From the IMG/VR virus record IMGVR_UViG_3300021400_000885, positions 1-64,000 of that record: a stretch of 64,000 bases of DNA. One strand, written 5' to 3'. The notes below the pieces were generated by a model. That model made no database searches, had not been told where the DNA came from, and worked only from the letters and a program-made list of their open reading frames with translations. Of the stretch, positions 16,921 through 43,176 are shown piece by piece. This DNA is from a virus (lineage: Duplodnaviria > Caudoviricetes). The position numbers were made by a program, and so were the translations under genes. Positions within the stretch are counted from its first letter, which is position 1, and each line of letters opens with the position of its first letter.

Positions 16921-16992
16921 TGAGGTATGGTGTAATTGGCAACACTAGGGATTTTGGTTCCCTCATTTGAGGTTCGAGTCCTCATACCTCAA
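16921..16992 (+). tRNA. tRNA-Gln(TTG)
   Basis: Cloverleaf; anticodon arm aggga-ttTTGgt-tccct; GGTTCGAGTCC T-arm. Confidence 0.92.
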
Positions 16993-17006
16993 CAACATTA
17001 ACTTTG

Positions 17007-17060
17007 GGGATACTCAAATTATGTTAAACATGATACTGAATAAAACCATTTGGGTATCCC
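17007..17060 (+). ncRNA. Candidate panhandle antisense RNA
   Basis: gggatactcaaat/atttgggtatccc stem enclosing aaaCATgatactgaataaaacc. Confidence 0.45.
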
Positions 17061-17097
17061 TTTAATTAGAACATTAACTATTTAAACACATAAAGCC

Positions 17098-17259
17098 ATG
17101 CTAACAATCAAAATGAAACAAGGAACAACACTCCTAGCTGCATCTTCCACTCTTGAGGAAGTACAGAGAAAAGCACTGAGTTATCAGTGCAAGAATGCTA
17201 AACAACCTTATGTTAGAAAAGACATATTTATTTCAATAAACGGAAAAGAATCATTTTAA
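17098..17259 (+). CDS. Small hypothetical protein (53 aa)
   Basis: MLTIKMKQG... ORF with A-rich leader; below the ORF-track cutoff. Confidence 0.5.
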   Translation: MLTIKMKQGTTLLAASSTLEEVQRKALSYQCKNAKQPYVRKDIFISINGKESF

Positions 17260-17260
17260 T

Positions 17261-17557
17261 ATGGATGCAATATTTATCATATTTTGCTATGCTTTTATGT
17301 TTGCTTGCTTGGCAATTCCAATATACAAACTCATAGACAGACGTAACAAGCAAAAGCAAATTGAAGAATCTTCAAAAGAGATAATCAAGACCACTTACAT
17401 ATACACAGATGGGAAATGTGAATATGAGCTTTATCTTAAACCTGCATCAAAAGCAGTATTTTATGTAAGAAATAAAGTAAGTAATGGCTATTCCTACAAA
17501 GTGTATATTCAAGGAGACCTAAAGAATACAGTCTTAAAAGCTTATGGACTGATATAA
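17261..17557 (+). CDS. Membrane-anchored hypothetical protein
   Basis: N-terminal TM segment. Confidence 0.55.
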   Translation: MDAIFIIFCYAFMFACLAIPIYKLIDRRNKQKQIEESSKEIIKTTYIYTDGKCEYELYLKPASKAVFYVRNKVSNGYSYKVYIQGDLKNTVLKAYGLI

Positions 17558-17564
17558 TAATCCT

Positions 17565-17639
17565 GCCCTCCTAGTATAAAGGTTATTACAGATGATTTGT
17601 AATCTTCAAATAGCTGTTCAACTCAGCTGGGGGGCTCCA
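17565..17639 (+). tRNA. tRNA-Thr(TGT)
   Basis: Cloverleaf; anticodon loop ttTGTaa; encoded CCA. Confidence 0.85.
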
Positions 17640-17709
17640 AGCAGTTTAAATGGATATAATAAAGGTTGTTTATGTTTATTTTTCGTTTCAGGGCACATTT
17701 AAACTGCTT
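17639..17709 (+). ncRNA. Panhandle RNA filling the Thr-Ile spacer
   Basis: Perfect 14-bp stem aagcagtttaaatg/catttaaactgctt enclosing a U-rich loop (no CAT). Confidence 0.5.
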
Positions 17710-17713
17710 ATTT

Positions 17714-17787
17714 AGTGGCGAAGCTTAATGAGTATAAGCACCAGTCTTATAAACTGGAGATATTGGGTGCAATTCCCAAGGCCACTA
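17714..17787 (+). tRNA. tRNA-Ile(TAT)
   Basis: Anticodon arm ccagt-ctTATaa-actgg; atypical T-loop (GTGCAAT). Confidence 0.8.
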
Positions 17788-17789
17788 CA

Positions 17790-17873
17790 GGTTACTGTAC
17801 AACATGCTGTAACCCATGAAGTTTTACTTTTTGTACATTAAGTGTACATACTGTTGTGAAATATTATGTACAC
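17790..17873 (+). ncRNA. Candidate antisense RNA with UGUGAA hairpin filling the Ile-Arg spacer
   Basis: aaccCATgaagttttactttttg, then gtgtacata..TGTGAA..tatgtacac hairpin. Confidence 0.55.
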
Positions 17874-17877
17874 ACAC

Positions 17878-17949
17878 TCCTCCATAGTTCAAGGGATAGA
17901 ACAGCAGTCTTCTAAACTGTCAATATGTGTTCGAGTCACATTGGAGGAA
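17878..17949 (+). tRNA. tRNA-Arg(TCT)
   Basis: Cloverleaf; anticodon loop ctTCTaa. Confidence 0.9.
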
Positions 17950-17980
17950 CTAATAATTAACAATTAAAAACATTAACATT

Positions 17981-18349
17981 ATGGCACTTAAAGTAAGTAT
18001 TACCTCAACAAAGTTTACTACAATTGGTAAGAATGTAGTATGTACAATTGCTACAACTATAAAGAATGACAACCCTTTGCCTTCAGAACCAGCTTATCCA
18101 TTCCTCATAAAAGTATTTACAGGTGAGGCTAAATACAATGAAGAAGATAAGTATGATTACAAGAAAGGTAGAGCAATTGCCCTTGCCAAAGCTGAAAGAG
18201 CATCTTACAAATACTGGAAGGAATTTCTTAAGAAATTGATGGATAAATACACAAGAGGGATTGCTCTTTGTACTCCATTGTATGGCAAATGCAGTGAAGT
18301 CATTGCACACAATACATTATTTATTGATGATTTAGTATCAAATAAATAA
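17981..18349 (+). CDS. Conserved phage hypothetical protein
   Basis: GEAKYNEEDKYDYKKGRAIA motif of a type common in phage proteins. Confidence 0.6.
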   Translation: MALKVSITSTKFTTIGKNVVCTIATTIKNDNPLPSEPAYPFLIKVFTGEAKYNEEDKYDYKKGRAIALAKAERASYKYWKEFLKKLMDKYTRGIALCTPLYGKCSEVIAHNTLFIDDLVSNK

Positions 18350-18358
18350 TTAGCTCAT

Positions 18359-18433
18359 CGGGGTGTAGTTCAGTTGGTAGAATGCCTGGTTTGGGACCAG
18401 GAGGTTGCGCATGTTCGAGTCATGTCACCCCGA
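18359..18433 (+). tRNA. tRNA-Pro(TGG)
   Basis: Cloverleaf; cctgg-ttTGGga-ccagg. Confidence 0.92.
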
Positions 18434-18434
18434 C

Positions 18435-28043: not shown

Positions 28044-28128
28044 GCTAGAGTGGCGGAATGGTCTACGCGAAAGACTTAAAATCTTTTGGACAGAATTGTC
28101 CTTGTGAGTTCGAGTCTCACCTCTAGTA
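28044..28128 (+). tRNA. tRNA-Leu(TAA)
   Basis: Cloverleaf with long variable arm; aaaga-ctTAAaa-tcttt. Confidence 0.92.
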
Positions 28129-28444
28129 CAATGGTATCAGATTTTATAGTACGTCTAAAGAGTACTAAAATACAAGTGTTTCAATCAAGAAACTATTATG
28201 AATGCTTGGAGTATGTTTCCAAGCATTCTTCTACTATTAAAGAACGTAAACAATACGAAATAATATTATTATCAAACCAAATCTTTAATTCTACAAGCCA
28301 TGAAACGAAAATTCAAGAGGACTGCTGAGAAATGTGCAGTTTGCTTTTTCCTTGCTGGAAAAGCCCATGTAACTATCCAAGAAACATCAGACAAAGAATT
28401 TAACAATTCACTAATTTCAAACATTTATTTAACACCCAAAGCTT

Positions 28445-34111: not shown

Positions 34112-35113
34112 ATGATTAGTGGAGGAACATATAATGGGGGAATTGACTCTTTGTTACAAAGAGTTTCAGAAGCTAATATTGCGGCATATTACCTTCAGGA
34201 ATTAACTCAAATTCCTCAGGTAATATGTTCCCCACTAAGAAAAGATGAGCACCCATCATTCAGAATTTATAGTCCAGATGGCATAAAAGTCAGATATTAT
34301 GATTATGTGACTGGAGAGACTGGAGGGATAATTGACTTTGTATGTAAGAAATTCAATCTTACACTGCCACAAGCCATCAATAAGATAAATAGTGAGGTTG
34401 GAAAGAAAAATCCTGTAAGAATTTCAACTTCTAATGGTATTACTATTAGGAAGGACAAAGCAATTTTTACAGTTAAATCAAGGAGGAGAGAATGGCAAGA
34501 CTATGATTTTGAATATTGGGGCTCATATGGAATAAGCAAGCCTTGGTTATTACATAGTGATATTTATCCAATAGATTACATATTTATCATATCTGAAAAT
34601 GGTTACACAAAGACCATTAAAGCAGATAAATACGCATATACTTTTATTGAAAGAAAGGATGGAGTAATTTCTGAAAAGATTTATCAGCCATTTAATAAAG
34701 AAGGAGTAAAATGGAGGTCTGGACATGATAGCTCTGTTTGGGATTTATGGACAAAACTTCCACAAAGAGGAGAAAGATTACTGATAACATCTTCAAGAAA
34801 AGATGCTCTTTGCTTATGGGCAAACCTTGGGATACCAGCAGTATCTCTACAAGGAGAAGCAATGAATGCCAAGCCTCAGGTAGTAAATGAGCTAAAGGAG
34901 AGATTTAAAAAGATATACGTATTATATGATAATGATTTTTCTAAAGACAGAAATGCAGGGAGGATTGATGGAGAGAAATTCTGTAAAACATTTGGATTAA
35001 TACAACTTGAAATACCAGAATACCTAAAAAGCAAAGACCCAAGTGATTTATATAAGAATCACGGAAAAGAAACATTCAGAAAAACAATCTTAGATTTAAT
35101 TAAACATGGTTAG
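34112..35113 (+). CDS. dnaG: DNA primase (Toprim)
   Basis: SPLRKDEHPSF degenerate Zn-finger region, ITSSRKD, YDND, KDPSD. Confidence 0.88.
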   Translation: MISGGTYNGGIDSLLQRVSEANIAAYYLQELTQIPQVICSPLRKDEHPSFRIYSPDGIKVRYYDYVTGETGGIIDFVCKKFNLTLPQAINKINSEVGKKNPVRISTSNGITIRKDKAIFTVKSRRREWQDYDFEYWGSYGISKPWLLHSDIYPIDYIFIISENGYTKTIKADKYAYTFIERKDGVISEKIYQPFNKEGVKWRSGHDSSVWDLWTKLPQRGERLLITSSRKDALCLWANLGIPAVSLQGEAMNAKPQVVNELKERFKKIYVLYDNDFSKDRNAGRIDGEKFCKTFGLIQLEIPEYLKSKDPSDLYKNHGKETFRKTILDLIKHG

Positions 35114-35708
35114 GAATATTACTGTTTATGAAAAGGAAGCACAGAAAAAGACTGTGTTTGAAAATGTTGATGTAAACACCCTTGCAGACATTAAGACTCT
35201 GCTTGACAATAAGGGCATCAATTACTATAATATGGAGTTCCTTGAAGGAGTTTCCAAAGTAAGACTTATGGTAGATGACTCTGTTCTGCCAAGCAATATC
35301 CCTTATAAGGGAAGTGTAACCAATGATTTGGTTATTCTCATGACCTTGAAGAATGAGAAAATCTCTTCTGGAGCACAGACAAGACAAGACCTTTATGACT
35401 TCATCAAGACTAACCATCTTGAAGATGCCATTAAGGAAAAATTTGGTAAGAATTTTACCAATGTTTCAACTCTTGACCTTATCAATTTTGCTGCTGACCA
35501 TGCTTGTGTAGAAGAAAAGCCTGAAAAATCTCTAACTGAAAAGGCTAAGGAAATTATTGAAAACCTTTATAACTATGGACACATTACTGAGGAAGAATAT
35601 AAAATTCTCCGTAATGCAATTCTTAGTGTAAAGGAAGTACAGGAAGATGATTCCAAAGGCTTCTCAAGAAATGAAATTGAAGAAATGATTGATAGCCTTA
35701 ATTTCTAA
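35106..35708 (+). CDS. Ubiquitin-like (beta-grasp) domain ending KISSG, fused to a helical C-terminal domain
   Basis: beta-beta-alpha(TLADIKTLL)-beta..DDSVLP..beta(LVILMT)-KISSG89 pattern; first gene of the E2/JAB/E1 cluster. Confidence 0.6.
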   Translation: MVRNITVYEKEAQKKTVFENVDVNTLADIKTLLDNKGINYYNMEFLEGVSKVRLMVDDSVLPSNIPYKGSVTNDLVILMTLKNEKISSGAQTRQDLYDFIKTNHLEDAIKEKFGKNFTNVSTLDLINFAADHACVEEKPEKSLTEKAKEIIENLYNYGHITEEEYKILRNAILSVKEVQEDDSKGFSRNEIEEMIDSLNF

Positions 35709-35725
35709 TTATACTAACTTAAAGT

Positions 35726-35758
35726 GCTGGGGTCTATAAAATAGGCCCCAGCTTTTTA
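35726..35758 (+). terminator. Intrinsic terminator between the Ubl and E2 genes
   Basis: gctggggtctat-aaa-ataggccccagc followed by TTTTT. Confidence 0.75.
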
Positions 35759-35764
35759 TTTATT

Positions 35765-36850
35765 ATGGATAATCAAGCATTACAAGAAAAATTCTCTATA
35801 TATGAGAGAACTATGCAAAATGATGCTATTGCATATCCAGTAAGCCTAGCTTTCAAATGTGCTAAGGAGTATTTTGGAGAAGAAAGAGTAATGCTGAAAG
35901 TTGCCTGTCCAACAAACAAAAGAGCTGAAGACAATATATCCAGTATACGCAATATTTATAATTGGAATATTAATAATATTCCTTGGACAAGGCAAACCAT
36001 TACTGTTCATTACCCAAAAGTTACTGTAACAAATGAATTGCATAATTCAACTGAAATATATGATTTATTTGTGCTTTTACAGTTCCAAGAAAATGGGGCT
36101 TTCCAAGACATTCATTATATAAGAACTACTTTTACATCTTCACAATGGGAAAGTGGATATATTCATTCTCATACTCCATCTTTACATAGTAGTGAGATAT
36201 TTTGGGGACATGTTTGTCTTGGTACGGGCCCAATAAATGGTACAATTGACCAATTAAGAAGAGGAGAGCAATACTCTGAATTTACTTGGGAATTGTTCTT
36301 TTGGGAACTTGACAAAATGGTACAAACAGAGTCCTTGGAAGGAGGGCCCTACATGAGGATGGAACATATTGTAAACAATCTAAAGAAAGTAAATCCCCAA
36401 GACTACTTTTGTACAGCTTCATTTTCCTCAGAATTTTCTACAGACTTCATAGAAAGCTATATTAAAAGCAAAAGGCTTAAACTTGTATTTAGAAATGGCA
36501 AGTTCTGTCTTGGAACATCTTTTCTTGAGTGGTACTTAGACTTTAATGCATATAGAAATGCTTATTATAAAATCTTAAATCGTACAGATGATATAAGAAG
36601 GCAAGACTATTATTATAATGATACTGCCCTATATGTAAAAACAAGAACAAGACTCTATAACTCAAGACCAACACCTTCAGAAAATCCTGTTTTAGTGTTT
36701 AATGGTGTTGTATATAAGGTTAAAATCATTCAAGAAGAAGAGAAGCTTGGGTTAAGAAAGATTTATGGAATAAATCTTCCCATTGCAAAAAGGTTTCTTG
36801 ATGTTCTTATTTGTACTTACAACAATGCAATAACTTTTGACAATGACTAA
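35765..36850 (+). CDS. Prokaryotic E2/UBC-like conjugating enzyme
   Basis: GYIHSH...HVCLGTGP (Cys151) matches the E2 HxH/N...C-L-G active-site arrangement; context with JAB and E1. Confidence 0.6.
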   Translation: MDNQALQEKFSIYERTMQNDAIAYPVSLAFKCAKEYFGEERVMLKVACPTNKRAEDNISSIRNIYNWNINNIPWTRQTITVHYPKVTVTNELHNSTEIYDLFVLLQFQENGAFQDIHYIRTTFTSSQWESGYIHSHTPSLHSSEIFWGHVCLGTGPINGTIDQLRRGEQYSEFTWELFFWELDKMVQTESLEGGPYMRMEHIVNNLKKVNPQDYFCTASFSSEFSTDFIESYIKSKRLKLVFRNGKFCLGTSFLEWYLDFNAYRNAYYKILNRTDDIRRQDYYYNDTALYVKTRTRLYNSRPTPSENPVLVFNGVVYKVKIIQEEEKLGLRKIYGINLPIAKRFLDVLICTYNNAITFDND

Positions 36851-38009
36851 TTTTACACTGGAAAGCTGTGAACAGCACTATAAAATGTTTATTCCACAAG
36901 AAGTGGAAAAGAAGATAAGAACTTGGTGTGCTTTACTGCCAGACAAAGAGTGGTCTGGAGTTCTCTTTTATTCTGTAAATGGCAATTTTGAGGATAATTC
37001 TCTTGAGGTAATCTGTAAAGATATTCTTGTAATGAATATTGGAGAATCTGCCTATACAGAATTTTCTTATGATGAAGATGTTGCTTTCTATATGGCTCAG
37101 AATCCTGAACTTCTGGATTGTTATCAGGCACTTATTCATAGCCATAATAACATGAAAGCGTTCTTCTCTGGCACTGATGTCAACACTATCCTTAAAGAGG
37201 GGAGTAAGACTGATAATTTCGTATCTCTTGTTGTAAATAATGCTGGTCAGTATGTTGCTATTGTAACAAGAAAAGTAATCAGCAACTCTTGTATTAAAGG
37301 CAAAAAGACTATCCATACATTAACAAAATTCTTTGGAGAAAGTGTTGAAAAAGATACTACTGTTGAAGATGCTGAAGTTAACTCAGAATCTAATATGGTA
37401 GAGTACTATCCTTTGGATATTACTATTGAAAAGAGTAGTTGGGATGAGGAAATATCAAGATATTCTGAGCTTAAAGCAAAATCCTATAAGCCAGTAACAC
37501 CTTTTTATAGTCCTAAAAGTACAATACTTCCAAAAGAAACTACTCCATTTAAGAGCAACAATACTTGGGAGCCTAAACTCTTTGAAGATGATGATAATTT
37601 AGAGCTTGATACTACTATTCAAACTTACCTTTCTCCAAAGTATGATAAGGCATGGAAGAATGCTGGATTGTATAATCTAATCAATAAGATTATTCTGGGC
37701 ACTCCTTATACAACAAAGGATATTGACCTTAATGTTTTTAAGAAAACAGTTGATTTTGATAAAGATATATGTAAGTATTTCTCTCAACAGAAGAATCAAA
37801 AGGCTGCTGAAGAAGACTTTTGCATTTGGGTAAGCGATTACTTAAATTATCTTATTGAAAGCTTTGATGTATCAAAAGTTAGTAAGGATATTCCTTTTGA
37901 TTTTGAAGAAGAAGTACTCATTTCAAAGCTTATTACTGAACTTGAAGACATTAAATCTGACTATATGCAACTTATTGTAGAAGAACTTAAATCAAGAATT
38001 GATTTATGA
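36837..38009 (+). CDS. JAB/MPN (JAMM) metalloprotease
   Basis: E38 (EWSG) and H101-x-H103-x7-S111-x2-D114, the canonical JAMM motif. Confidence 0.88.
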   Translation: MTMTNFTLESCEQHYKMFIPQEVEKKIRTWCALLPDKEWSGVLFYSVNGNFEDNSLEVICKDILVMNIGESAYTEFSYDEDVAFYMAQNPELLDCYQALIHSHNNMKAFFSGTDVNTILKEGSKTDNFVSLVVNNAGQYVAIVTRKVISNSCIKGKKTIHTLTKFFGESVEKDTTVEDAEVNSESNMVEYYPLDITIEKSSWDEEISRYSELKAKSYKPVTPFYSPKSTILPKETTPFKSNNTWEPKLFEDDDNLELDTTIQTYLSPKYDKAWKNAGLYNLINKIILGTPYTTKDIDLNVFKKTVDFDKDICKYFSQQKNQKAAEEDFCIWVSDYLNYLIESFDVSKVSKDIPFDFEEEVLISKLITELEDIKSDYMQLIVEELKSRIDL

Positions 38010-39043
38010 GAGAATCAGTTGAAGATATTATGAGAAGATTAAACCTTCGTCCACAAACGCAAGCACAAGAGATTGCAGCTAATCCTGCAGCATATACTGT
38101 GTATATTGCAGGCACAGCAGCTCCTACACCTTTGCCAGTAAATGCTAATGAAGTACTTAATGATTTACTTAATGGAGCTGCAGTTGCAAGTGATTCTAGT
38201 GTATCTGATGAAGAACTTGATGATATTGTTGAAGACTCTTTGGTGGAACCTGCACAGTCTCCACAAGAGGAAGATAATAGTATTAATGCTCAAATTGCTA
38301 GATATGAGGCTCTTCAGACTGAAGACACTGTTGTAAGGGAAGAAGTATTAAGATTTTCTGGAGCTGAATGGTTTAAGAAAGTCCAAGAACAAACTATTAT
38401 TGTTGGAGGAGCTGGAGGAATATCAAGTTATGTAGTATATAATCTTGCTAAACTCCATCCAAGCAGTATTTATGTGTATGACCCTGATACAGTAGAAACT
38501 GTGAATCTTGCTGGTCAGTTATTTAAGGTATCTGATGTTGGTAAAAGAAAAGTTGATGCTGTAACTCAGACTGCAATAGATTTTTCTGGATTTAGGAGTA
38601 TATTTGCTCTCCCTATGTGGTTTAAAGAAGATTGTGAGGCTGCACCAGTAATGATTTGTGGGTTTGATAATATGCAAGCTAGAAGAACATTCTTTACTGT
38701 ATGGGAGCAAGGAGTAAAACATGTTCCAGAAGCTTCCAAAGCAAACTCTCTGTTTATTGATGGTAGGCTTGCTGCTGAAAAGTTTCAAATATTTACAGTC
38801 CAAGGAAACAATTCTTGGGCAATTGAAGAATATAAAAAGTATCTATTTGATGATTCTGAAGCAGTAGAAGCACAGTGTTCTTTCAAACAAACTGCTTTTA
38901 TGGCAAACATGATTGGGAGTTACATTACAAATCTCTTTGTAAATTTCTGTGCTAATCTTTGTAATACTTCAGGACTGGACAGACCTTTACCATTCAAGCT
39001 TGAGTATTCTGCAGATAATATGTTTTTAATAACTGAAGAGTAA
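38006..39043 (+). CDS. ThiF/E1-like activating enzyme
   Basis: GAGGIS nucleotide-binding loop, DPDTVETVNLAGQ, K, FDNMQAR, DGRL, candidate catalytic Cys291 (AQCS); acidic N-terminal extension. Confidence 0.9.
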   Translation: MRESVEDIMRRLNLRPQTQAQEIAANPAAYTVYIAGTAAPTPLPVNANEVLNDLLNGAAVASDSSVSDEELDDIVEDSLVEPAQSPQEEDNSINAQIARYEALQTEDTVVREEVLRFSGAEWFKKVQEQTIIVGGAGGISSYVVYNLAKLHPSSIYVYDPDTVETVNLAGQLFKVSDVGKRKVDAVTQTAIDFSGFRSIFALPMWFKEDCEAAPVMICGFDNMQARRTFFTVWEQGVKHVPEASKANSLFIDGRLAAEKFQIFTVQGNNSWAIEEYKKYLFDDSEAVEAQCSFKQTAFMANMIGSYITNLFVNFCANLCNTSGLDRPLPFKLEYSADNMFLITEE

Positions 39044-39594
39044 TGTTAACTAGAACTGCACAAAATAATATATCTTGGCTCCCCGGTTATGAAGCAATTC
39101 ATTTGGATAGTGATAACTCTACACTTATTTCAACCATACGAACATATGGAGATTTTAAACTTCCATTTGCTGTAAAAGGACAGGCTACTATAGGATATAC
39201 TGAAACAAAGAACATGAGTCTTGCAGAATTTAAGAGACTTAATGAATTTGGCAGTGCTTCCTTTACAAAGTGTATTATTGAAGATAAGGATGAGTGCATC
39301 TGTGGATACCAATGTATTATAAAGGATGATATTATTGTTTATGCTCAAGCTACAGATAGTACAGTTTATATTTCAAAGAAATTGTTTAGAGACCCTAAGA
39401 GTGTTGTTAATAAATTCATTATTAATGATATTCTACCAAGTCTAGCTTCTGAAGGAGAAATTATCTGTGGGGATGAGTATATTAAGCAAGCACAAATTCC
39501 AGTGTATATGTGGTATACACATCCAAAAGAGTTAGATGAATCTATTGAAAAGTTGCTTCTAAAGCACTTAACTGAAATTTCTGCATTGCTATGA
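39043..39594 (+). CDS. Hypothetical protein translationally coupled to E1
   Basis: TAATG overlap with E1, ATGA overlap with ung. Confidence 0.6.
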   Translation: MLTRTAQNNISWLPGYEAIHLDSDNSTLISTIRTYGDFKLPFAVKGQATIGYTETKNMSLAEFKRLNEFGSASFTKCIIEDKDECICGYQCIIKDDIIVYAQATDSTVYISKKLFRDPKSVVNKFIINDILPSLASEGEIICGDEYIKQAQIPVYMWYTHPKELDESIEKLLLKHLTEISALL

Positions 39595-40265
39595 CAACAG
39601 AGGAATACTTTGGAGACTGGTTGGATATTATACCAAAAAGTAGTATTCTTACCTACACTAAAATGCTCATGCAAGCTCAACTTAATGGAGTTCCCATTGA
39701 GCCTAAAGATGGTTTTGGTGTATTTAAGGCATTCAACAGAACTCCATTAAAATCCTGTAAAGCTGTTATTTTAGGTCAAGACCCTTACTTTGATGGGTCA
39801 GCAACTGGGCTTGCTTTTGCTAATGATGTAGAAAGAAAAGACTTTTCAAAAGTCAGTCCGTCTCTTAGTGTAATAAAAAATAGTGTCATTTCTTTAGCAA
39901 AATCAGAAGATTTGATTAACTTTGATTTTAGCCTAGAAAGCTGGGCAGCACAAGGAATTTTGCTTTTAAATTCAGCATTGACTGTAAGAAAGGGAGTTCC
40001 TGGGAGTCACACAGAAGCTTGGAAACCTTTTATTAAATTAGTTGCAAAGAATCTTTCAGCCTATAAACCAAGGATTTTTTGGATACTTTTTGGTAAACAA
40101 GCTTGGGATTTTAAGGAATACATAAATCCTAAAAGTCCTATACTGATGGAGTATCACCCAGCTTTCTATGCAAGAAATAATAAGGAAATGAGCCCACATG
40201 TATGGGAGAAACTCATTGATTATTACCAACAAGAGTATAATCAAGACTTGCTTTTATATGAATAG
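39591..40265 (+). CDS. ung: Uracil-DNA glycosylase family 1
   Basis: GQDPY, ATGLAF, SPSL, LLLNSALTV, YHPA. Confidence 0.92.
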   Translation: MTTEEYFGDWLDIIPKSSILTYTKMLMQAQLNGVPIEPKDGFGVFKAFNRTPLKSCKAVILGQDPYFDGSATGLAFANDVERKDFSKVSPSLSVIKNSVISLAKSEDLINFDFSLESWAAQGILLLNSALTVRKGVPGSHTEAWKPFIKLVAKNLSAYKPRIFWILFGKQAWDFKEYINPKSPILMEYHPAFYARNNKEMSPHVWEKLIDYYQQEYNQDLLLYE

Positions 40266-42221: not shown

Positions 42222-42692
42222 ATGAAAATTAAATATGTAAGAGAGAATGACAGTATTCTCAAAGTTATAAAGCTTTCACAAGGTGATTGGCTAGACCTTG
42301 CAACTGCTGAAGATGTTACCCTTACAAAAGGAGATTTCTATTTAATTTCTCTTGGAATAAGGATACAACTTCCTAAAGGATTTGAAGCACACCTTGTGCC
42401 AAGAAGTAGCACATTTAAAAAGTGGGGAATTATACAAGGTAACTCCATTGGAATAATTGATAATTCTTATCAAGGAAGACAAGATATTTGGAGATTTCCT
42501 GCTTATGCTATCAGAAAGACTGAGATTCCTAAAGGCACAAGGATATGCCAATTTAGGATTGTACCAAGCATGAATGCAGGATTCTGGGTTAAGTTAAAAT
42601 GGTTGTTTACAAAGAAAGTTGAATTTATTGAAGAGGAGTATATAAGTGATGAGGATTCTAGTAGGGGTGGGTTTGGCTCAACAGGTAATTAA
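42222..42692 (+). CDS. dut: dUTPase (trimeric)
   Basis: DLA, PRSS, GIIDNSYQG, RICQ, RGGFGSTG. Confidence 0.95.
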   Translation: MKIKYVRENDSILKVIKLSQGDWLDLATAEDVTLTKGDFYLISLGIRIQLPKGFEAHLVPRSSTFKKWGIIQGNSIGIIDNSYQGRQDIWRFPAYAIRKTEIPKGTRICQFRIVPSMNAGFWVKLKWLFTKKVEFIEEEYISDEDSSRGGFGSTGN

Positions 42693-43176
42693 ACTGCTGG
42701 GCTGTATTGTGATATTGACAATTTTAGCAATCTTATATACTATGATATTTAATAAAAAAATAAAGAGATTCAGCTTTAGGGAATCTATGGCTTTATCAGG
42801 ATTGCCAATAATTTCTTTTGAGAATAACAATCACTGGGTAAACATGCTTTTGGATACTGGAGGCACAGACTCTATAATTGATAGTAATTATATAAAATAC
42901 CTAGAATATACAGATACAGATAAACCAACATCTTCCTTTGTTGGAACAACTGGTAAAACAGATATTGGTCAAAAGATAATTAATATAATTCTTACTAAAG
43001 ATGATGATAAAACTTTCAATATTGACTGTACTGTAATAAATCTAGGAGAAGCATTTACTGCAATTAAGGAGTCTTATGGAGTTCAGTTGCATGGAATCTT
43101 AGGCACAGACTTTCTTGATAAATATAAGTATGTAATTGATTTTGAAAAGATGATTGCATATAATAAAGCAGAATGA
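42646..43176 (+). CDS. Retropepsin-like aspartyl protease, N-terminal membrane anchor (start uncertain)
   Basis: LLDTGG and GILGTDFL motifs. Confidence 0.8.
   Translation: MMRILVGVGLAQQVIKLLGCIVILTILAILYTMIFNKKIKRFSFRESMALSGLPIISFENNNHWVNMLLDTGGTDSIIDSNYIKYLEYTDTDKPTSSFVGTTGKTDIGQKIINIILTKDDDKTFNIDCTVINLGEAFTAIKESYGVQLHGILGTDFLDKYKYVIDFEKMIAYNKAE

Follow-up and report, generated by a model that had tools for sequence, protein, structure and literature searches.

Organization and Conservation of the Cassette

The DNA analyzed here is a window of 64,000 nucleotides, the first 64 kb of the 103.9-kb virus record IMGVR_UViG_3300021400_000885. Between its primase gene and its uracil-DNA glycosylase (UDG) gene lie five open reading frames (ORFs), all at the positions given in an earlier note on this sequence: a ubiquitin-like protein (Ubl) precursor, a probable E2-like conjugating enzyme, a JAB/JAMM metallopeptidase, an E1/ThiF adenylating enzyme and a short fifth ORF. 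This cassette is a conserved, novel and phage-run variant of the prokaryotic Ubl operons. The mostly overlapping start and stop codons described earlier are found at every junction but that of the Ubl and E2 genes, where a 56-nt gap contains a terminator hairpin. The motifs quoted for the Ubl, E2-like, JAB and E1 proteins are all present, and their invariance across relatives indicates that they are not due to chance. The term "complete" operon suits the gene set but goes too far for activity, and the fifth ORF had been left undescribed.

Conservation was assessed in two locus sets, 40 first loci and 80 held-out loci. The order primase-Ubl-E2-JAB-E1 was kept in 40/40 first loci, as far as the contigs extend, and in every one of the 72 held-out loci that have a full upstream flank; across both sets, gene order was constant in about 110 loci with sufficient flank. 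In FpV4, UDG has been relocated upstream. The gene order flanking the cassette is the same as in crAss001, and the terminase of the window phage shares 46-49% identity with those of cr111_1, IAS virus and crAss001-like phages. Judged by its sequence, the window genome is that of a crAss-like phage near Steigviridae.

The Ubl Precursor and Its Helical Tail

The first ORF (35106-35708, plus strand, 200 aa), ortholog of crAss001 gp79, is assigned as a Ubl precursor by an AlphaFold2 (AF2) model, fold searches, invariant residues and split genes in relatives. It comprises a beta-grasp domain (residues 1-83), a flexible linker leading to Ser88-Gly89, a conserved small helical domain (residues ~93-133) and a variable acidic tail, and the AF2 model accordingly has the order beta-beta-alpha-beta-beta-beta at 1-83, a low-confidence linker at 84-90 and then helices. 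In a structural search independent of Foldseek, all of the top 50 matches were beta-grasp proteins, the best with Z up to 7.5 and a root-mean-square deviation (rmsd) of 2.1 Å over 72 residues, so the beta-grasp fold suspected earlier passed the check. DIX/SOSEKI polymerising domains were among the best matches, tied with ubiquitin-like domains (within 1 Z). Since ubiquitin residues -1 to 76 superpose on model residues 1-87, Gly89, located 2-3 residues beyond the position aligned with ubiquitin Gly76, lies at the expected C-terminal position. Ser88-Gly89 was invariant in 40/40 sequences, and the Gly89 codon (35370-35372, plus strand) would thus encode the predicted C-terminus of the mature Ubl after cleavage by the JAB protein. 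An ESM Atlas search with the Ubl returned unnamed neighbours only, and the domain behind the Gly had no reliable Pfam or PDB match. A conserved GKNFT motif of the tail (window 35445-35480, residues ~114-125) resembles a short stretch of phiKZ gp101 (PDB 9xph, E 0.016), probably by chance.

Four relatives, including RefSeq cr106_1, carry the Ubl as a stand-alone protein of 91-92 aa that ends in Ser-Gly plus two residues, and the tail as its own downstream gene. The splitting element is a free-standing HNH endonuclease gene located two codons past the Ubl Gly (locus L169:1740-2943, which is cr106_1, NC_055871.1 43376-44579; further cases at L113, L134 and L147, the endonuclease of L147 being decayed). 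Because relatives carry the Ubl domain as a separate gene ending in Gly plus two residues, the product of ORF 35106 appears to be a precursor. In IAS virus, the post-primase gene encodes nothing but the tail domain, and zero matches were obtained with the Ubl-domain, E2, JAB and E1 profiles; in cr108_1, all four were likewise undetected. The split genes and these losses together suggest that the Ubl domain moves with the three enzymes, that the tail is a separate product and that the cassette is dispensable at the family scale. At the IAS virus slot (L191, NC_049978.1 82597-86060), the tail-domain gene is followed by a 1-kb unannotated gap and then by the next annotated genes, two rII-like "protector from prophage-induced early lysis" genes, which hints, if weakly, at a counter-defence role of the slot.

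These observations also bear on a different explanation, in which the cassette serves mainly to make the released helical tail, or a beta-grasp scaffold that polymerises, and E1 and E2 merely regulate this product, for example by self-conjugation into chains for a replication compartment. The tail is retained alone in IAS virus and has its own gene in cr106_1, the DIX/SOSEKI domains match as described, bacterial Ubl3 proteins form filaments, and several lysines of the Ubl are conserved. However, loss of the Ubl domain goes with that of E1, E2 and JAB rather than that of the tail, the Ubls that form filaments are three-domain proteins whereas there is one domain here, and the DIX matches lie within 1 Z of ubiquitin. 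We consider this explanation very unlikely.

The E2-like Protein

The second ORF (35765-36850, plus strand, 361 aa), ortholog of gp78, has a UBC-like domain at residues ~20-205 with H134-S135-H136, C151 and E189-S190, followed by a C-terminal second domain. H134, S135, H136, C151 and G153 were invariant in 150/150 sequences and the motif was kept in 72/72 of the held-out set, with 12-20 residues between His136 and Cys151 across the family. In an AF2 model built from 150 sequences (pLDDT 86.6), a helix, a four-stranded meander, the His-Ser-His motif, a loop, Cys151 and two helices follow each other as in the UBC topology, before the second domain. About 46 of the top 50 rows of a wide structural search were E2, UEV or RWD domains, BubB included (Z 4.2-5.9), and all 50 rows of a second search were of these types, led by UBE2L6 (Z 6.4, rmsd 3.4 Å over 122 residues). 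Weak Foldseek rows for the model include Atg3 and UFC1.

Sequence comparisons were less telling. The family had no direct match to any Pfam E2 model, and a profile search of PDB sequences gave none. It is large (3,298 clusters at 50% identity), and Prok-E2_D is found on 13% of the members of a neighbouring ESM cluster. With a protein of a Xanthomonas jumbo phage, hhalign aligned just the His...Cys-Leu-Gly segment (E 0.09). The UBC fold claimed earlier passed its refuting check: E2, UEV and RWD domains are the closest structures, but the match is modest (Z below 8) and no sequence-profile match was significant. Based on the model, a UBC/E2-like fold is probable, and Cys151, if it overlays the catalytic Cys of E2 enzymes, would have the catalytic role.

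It could be argued that the protein is instead a UBC-fold adaptor or a metal-dependent enzyme, with H134, H136 and C151 as ligands, and that E1 activates the Ubl and transfers it directly, or to this protein as its sole substrate. UEV and RWD pseudo-E2 domains do match the model as well as active E2s, and the His136-Cys151 spacing of 12-20 residues exceeds that of canonical E2s, which is 8. Against this, Cys151 was invariant throughout, in a Cys-x-Gly context as in Prok-E2_D and the jumbo-phage protein, and BilB too has a long variable loop ahead of its catalytic Cys. An adaptor or metal enzyme is therefore regarded as quite unlikely.

The JAB Protease and the E1 Enzyme

The third ORF (36837-38009, plus strand), ortholog of gp77, encodes 390 aa from a TTG (ATG at 36843). 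Its Prok-JAB match is weak (E 0.004, below the Pfam cut-off), and its C-terminal half is variable. The JAMM set of E38, H101, H103, S111 and D114 is nevertheless intact and was kept in full in 36/36 proteins of the first set and 72/74 of the held-out set, in agreement with the earlier call of an intact JAMM protease. The crAss001 ortholog is labelled metalloprotease/MPN in RefSeq and by Yutin et al.

The fourth ORF (38006-39043, plus strand, 345 aa), ortholog of gp76, encodes a minimal single-domain E1/ThiF adenylating enzyme, matching ThiF (PF00899) at 50.5 bits (cut-off 28.1). Its N-terminal 108 residues are acidic, variable and missing in FpV4, the catalytic core starting at about residue 109; the core has ~235 aa, compared with 228 aa for the entire FpV4 E1. 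GxGG and C291 were invariant (32/32), as were D159, D161, K182 and a DGR motif, and the Cys motif was kept in 77/77 held-out sequences. Together with the ThiF score above the Pfam cut-off, the invariant GxGG and Cys291 bear out the ThiF/E1 assignment. A CxxC zinc motif was found in 0/77 of the held-out E1 sequences, and no rhodanese domain on the E1. Cys291 lies at the end of the crossover loop, directly before the following long helix, a position that would correspond to the catalytic Cys250 of UBA5. Orthologs are found in crAss001 (gp76), DAC15/17 and FpV4-like Flavobacterium phages, with more distant ones in Xanthomonas jumbo phages.

The RefSeq label of the E1 is "thiamine biosynthesis protein". 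We rejected a role of the cassette in thiamine biosynthesis; no ThiS, cysteine desulfurase or rhodanese was found in the 103.9-kb record and no thiamine or molybdenum cofactor (MoCo) family among the 42 other window ORFs. These scans also confirm that thiamine, molybdopterin and sulfur-transfer genes are absent nearby, as had been claimed.

In another explanation, the same relay ends on a non-protein acceptor (a lipid, a nucleic acid or a small molecule), or the Ubl is a sulfur carrier that receives a thiocarboxylate with the help of host desulfurases. The E1 family profile matched MccB, UBA5, ThiF and Uba1 about equally and is as near to MccB, PaaA, ThiF and TcdA as to UBA5. MoeB and ThiF also have a Cys near the position equivalent to Cys291, the Foldseek rows of the E2-like model include Atg3 and UFC1, and nucleotide-metabolism genes adjoin the cassette. 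As regards a ThiS/ThiF or MoaD/MoeB relay, its carrier and its sulfur donor or acceptor genes were not found in the record, although the host could supply them. A non-protein acceptor is considered unlikely.

Terminator, Expression and the Fifth ORF

The gap between the Ubl and E2 genes holds an intrinsic-terminator-like hairpin with a T-run (35726-35762, hairpin 35726-35752, plus strand; -23.9 kcal/mol, z -4.8). Such a terminator was detected 3' of the Ubl gene in 36/39 distinct loci of the first set and 61/65 of the held-out set (97/104), compared with 0/43 and 0/55 after the primase; matches after the other cassette genes were fewer and weaker. The hairpin position fits what would be expected for a consumable tag with catalytic partners and suggests an excess of Ubl, although the tail lies on the same transcript.

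According to an RNA-seq supplement (PMC8375218), crAss001 gp75-79 rise ~2^10-fold (about thousandfold) with the primase, UDG and middle genes. The supplement gives fold changes only, and time order was derived from the early, middle and late gene patterns; the middle phase of crAss001 sets in 10-30 min after infection. In the accessible part of the PMC12118408 supplement text, phage proteins were not found. A promoter scan gave counts at chance level. The Ubl gene contains one sequence that fits the sigma-70 consensus perfectly (12/12; window 35203-35231), a type of match that should be read against these chance-level counts and the use of other promoters by Bacteroidota.

The fifth ORF (39043-39594, plus strand, 183 aa), at the gp75 position, is conserved in position and fast-evolving. 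An ORF followed E1 in 41/41 loci examined, whereas the alignment has zero invariant columns and thus no invariant catalytic residue, and no Pfam or PDB match was obtained. It may possibly be an adaptor or a substrate.

Genomic Setting and Distribution

Among 185,579 prokaryotic genomes (GTDB), 14 contigs matched, nearly all with a phage primase or UDG context, which indicates that the cassette family is viral. Full cassettes were seen on two long contigs filed as bacterial metagenome-assembled genomes (MAGs), one of a Puia sp. (L056, 374 kb) and one of Bacilli (L052, 640 kb); these could represent crAss-like phages that are integrated or mis-assembled, or else larger phages. In one relative, a group I intron (L050:2669-3674, with a LAGLIDADG-like ORF) splits the His-Ser-His motif of the E2-like gene, and in another (L164:3657-4757) a group I intron splits the JAMM His-Ser-His motif, both at the same His|Ser-His position. 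These are the kind of conserved site that introns target.

Related loci were observed in other phages. In the 227-kb Xanthomonas phage PhiXhv-12 (L041:3763-7639), a related E1 is preceded by an 892-aa protein with His-Pro-His...Cys-Leu-Gly, adjoined by a 140-aa ORF ending in Gly-Gly, and the locus lies between DNA ligase and topoisomerase. No JAB motif was seen at this locus, which is probably a second phage Ubl cassette, and its His-Pro-His suggests a tentative link to the His-Pro-Asn motif. Phages of 37-42 kb, among them Ralstonia phage Dina (L043:1395-5747; others at L103-L107), have a PRTRC cassette that is complete (E, C/Prok_Ub, F, B/Prok-E2_D, A/JAB and ThiF). The Ubl profile matched neither the PRTRC-C protein of Dina nor the jumbo-phage Gly-Gly protein.

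The immediate neighbours in the window are the primase upstream (34112-35113, PHROG E 3.5e-49) and UDG downstream (39591-40265, Pfam E 1.3e-13). A retropepsin-like aspartyl protease (window 42646-43176), conserved in beta-group crAss phages, stands beside dUTPase and PolA and is a second protease in the replication block. The window also has five tRNA genes (Gln, Thr, Arg, Pro and Leu) at 16921-18434 and 28044-28129, with no suppressor tRNA among them.

Comparison with Known Ubl Systems and Previous Reports

The Bil system (PMC10557695), too, has individual Ubl, E2, JAB and E1 genes arranged in this order, no E3 and a long loop ahead of the E2 Cys, and its pro-form Ubl trimmed by JAB and its Cys-based E1 and E2 are also predicted for the phage. 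However, the E1 of Bil, BilD, has several domains (IAD-AAD-CYS) and a zinc site of four Cys, whereas the phage E1 is a single adenylation domain that lacks CxxC (0/77); BilB has a His after its Cys (CEHH), whereas the His pair of the E2-like protein precedes Cys151 and no conserved His follows it. Bil is a host defence system, and the cassette lies in the replication block of a virulent phage. A PADLOC scan gave no BilA, BilB or BilC match. Type I Bub (6E.1; BubAB, BubCD and BubE; PMC11601596) resembles the proposed phage system in a JAB that frees the Ubl from a longer precursor at an internal Gly, a minimal homodimer-type E1 and the domain order Ubl-E2-JAB-E1. Bub of types I and II differs in forming oxyesters on Tyr (E1 crossover) and Ser (E2) without catalytic Cys, whereas the phage set has invariant Cys291 and Cys151, and in its BubAB/BubCD or BubBD fusions with BubE/DUF6527; the phage ORFs are separate, and none matched DUF6527.

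PRTRC (operon 6d of Iyer 2006; Prok_Ub, Prok-E2_D, JAB+DUF2016, ThiF and alpha-hel2) likewise has separate Ubl, E2-like, JAB and ThiF genes, is phage-borne in Ralstonia phage Dina and Burkholderia phage AB2, and shares Prok-E2_D with 13% of the neighbouring ESM cluster. In contrast, no part of the cassette reached its PRTRC or Pfam cut-off for this system (PRTRC_ThiF, 34.6 vs 144.75 bits), whereas the Dina proteins B, C and A, used as a control, reached theirs. ParB and proteins E and F are absent from the cassette, gene order and E2 motif differ, and PRTRC itself is uncharacterised. UFM1-UBA5-UFC1 offers a likeness without a claim of orthology: a minimal E1 with a Cys at the end of the crossover loop, and trimming that exposes a single C-terminal Gly (in the split-gene phages, two residues would be trimmed off), but with a JAMM instead of a cysteine protease and with neither zinc site nor E3 complex in the phage set. 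CBASS Cap2/Cap3 employs E1, E2 and JAB chemistry in phage-host conflict; Cap2, however, is an E2-E1 fusion conjugating a CD-NTase, whereas the phage has distinct E1 and E2 genes along with a true beta-grasp Ubl, and no CD-NTase family was found among the scanned window ORFs. Membership of Bil, Bub, CBASS and PRTRC was rejected on these defining differences.

The view that such sets are characterised on the host side applies to CBASS Cap2, Bil and Bub, for which activity has been shown, but it is too narrow for their occurrence: temperate Ralstonia and Burkholderia phages carry PRTRC cassettes, described as partitioning genes (in one paper, a partitioning cassette), and lambdoid phages the TAPI/TAPK Ubl-JAB pair. 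The genes studied here were drawn in the same place in the beta-group crAss block of Yutin et al. 2021 (Suppl. Fig. 2B, PMC7886860; AXQ62722, AXQ62721, MPN, ThiF and AXQ62718), where just ThiF and MPN were named, three genes were "uncharacterized" and no Ubl, E2 or pathway was proposed. Our search of the literature outside subscription papers found no paper describing the cassette as a Ubl pathway. The present work adds the outcome of the UBC-fold search, the evidence from split genes and co-loss, and the terminator counts.

A Proposed Phage-run Conjugation Pathway

We propose that the cassette is fairly probably a phage-run Ubl pathway that conjugates proteins and is active in the middle (replication) phase. 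The interpretation given in the earlier note is thus supported in part. The gene set, the Ubl and E2-like folds, the invariant residues, the Gly boundary and the co-loss would accommodate five steps, whose chemistry and target are predictions. The Ubl gene would be transcribed in excess owing to the terminator behind it, where the hairpin is observed. The JAMM protease would cleave after Gly89, at the boundary indicated by the split genes, yielding the tag and a separate helical protein, for which BubC and BilC set a precedent. A minimal, probably homodimeric UBA5-like E1, of the observed family and with the observed Cys, would adenylate Gly89 with ATP and load it as a thioester on Cys291. The tag would then be handed to Cys151 of the E2-like protein, whose fold is modestly supported and in which His-Ser-His may replace His-Pro-Asn. 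Ligation to target lysines would proceed without a canonical E3, the extra E2 domain or the fifth ORF perhaps selecting the targets.

Several points weigh against this proposal. The structural scores of the E2-like protein reach Z 6.4 at most (below 8) with rmsd of 3.4-5 Å, a range compatible with a mere common arrangement; Foldseek against the PDB gave no match at E<=0.001, and hhalign revealed no significant similarity of the family to 41 canonical viral E2s and four PRTRC-B proteins. H134, H136 and C151 could be a metal site, and sulfur-relay enzymes could be supplied by the host. Moreover, no E3 or target has been identified, and all the chemistry is predicted.

The most likely use of the cassette is the modification of host or phage proteins in takeover and DNA replication, as a conditional advantage. 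The fixed position and age of the unit suggest a role tied to the replication phase, whereas its loss in IAS virus and cr108_1 suggests that this role is conditional; an ancient unit that keeps its place but has been lost by some members of the family would fit such an advantage. More tentatively, virulent crAss-like phages may run an autonomous cascade of a new type, with a minimal zinc-free E1, a His-Ser-His E2 and a Ubl co-produced with a second protein, that covalently tags host defence or replication proteins in the course of infection. Such co-production would resemble ubiquitin-fusion genes, and it is conceivable, if somewhat speculative, that the cascade is a viral mirror of Bil and CBASS.

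The cassette is carried by cultured phages, namely crAss001 (gp79-gp75), DAC15 and FpV4, with IAS virus as a natural null, and the predicted residues and cleavage site are explicit. A Ubl-pathway reading would correct the public phage records whose "thiamine biosynthesis" label can make the gene pass for an auxiliary metabolic one. All bacterial ubiquitination pathways of demonstrated activity (CBASS Cap2, Bil and Bub) are host-side, in cells; if the proposal is true, the same chemistry would be used by a virus, both in Flavobacterium phages and in Steigviridae from human and animal guts.

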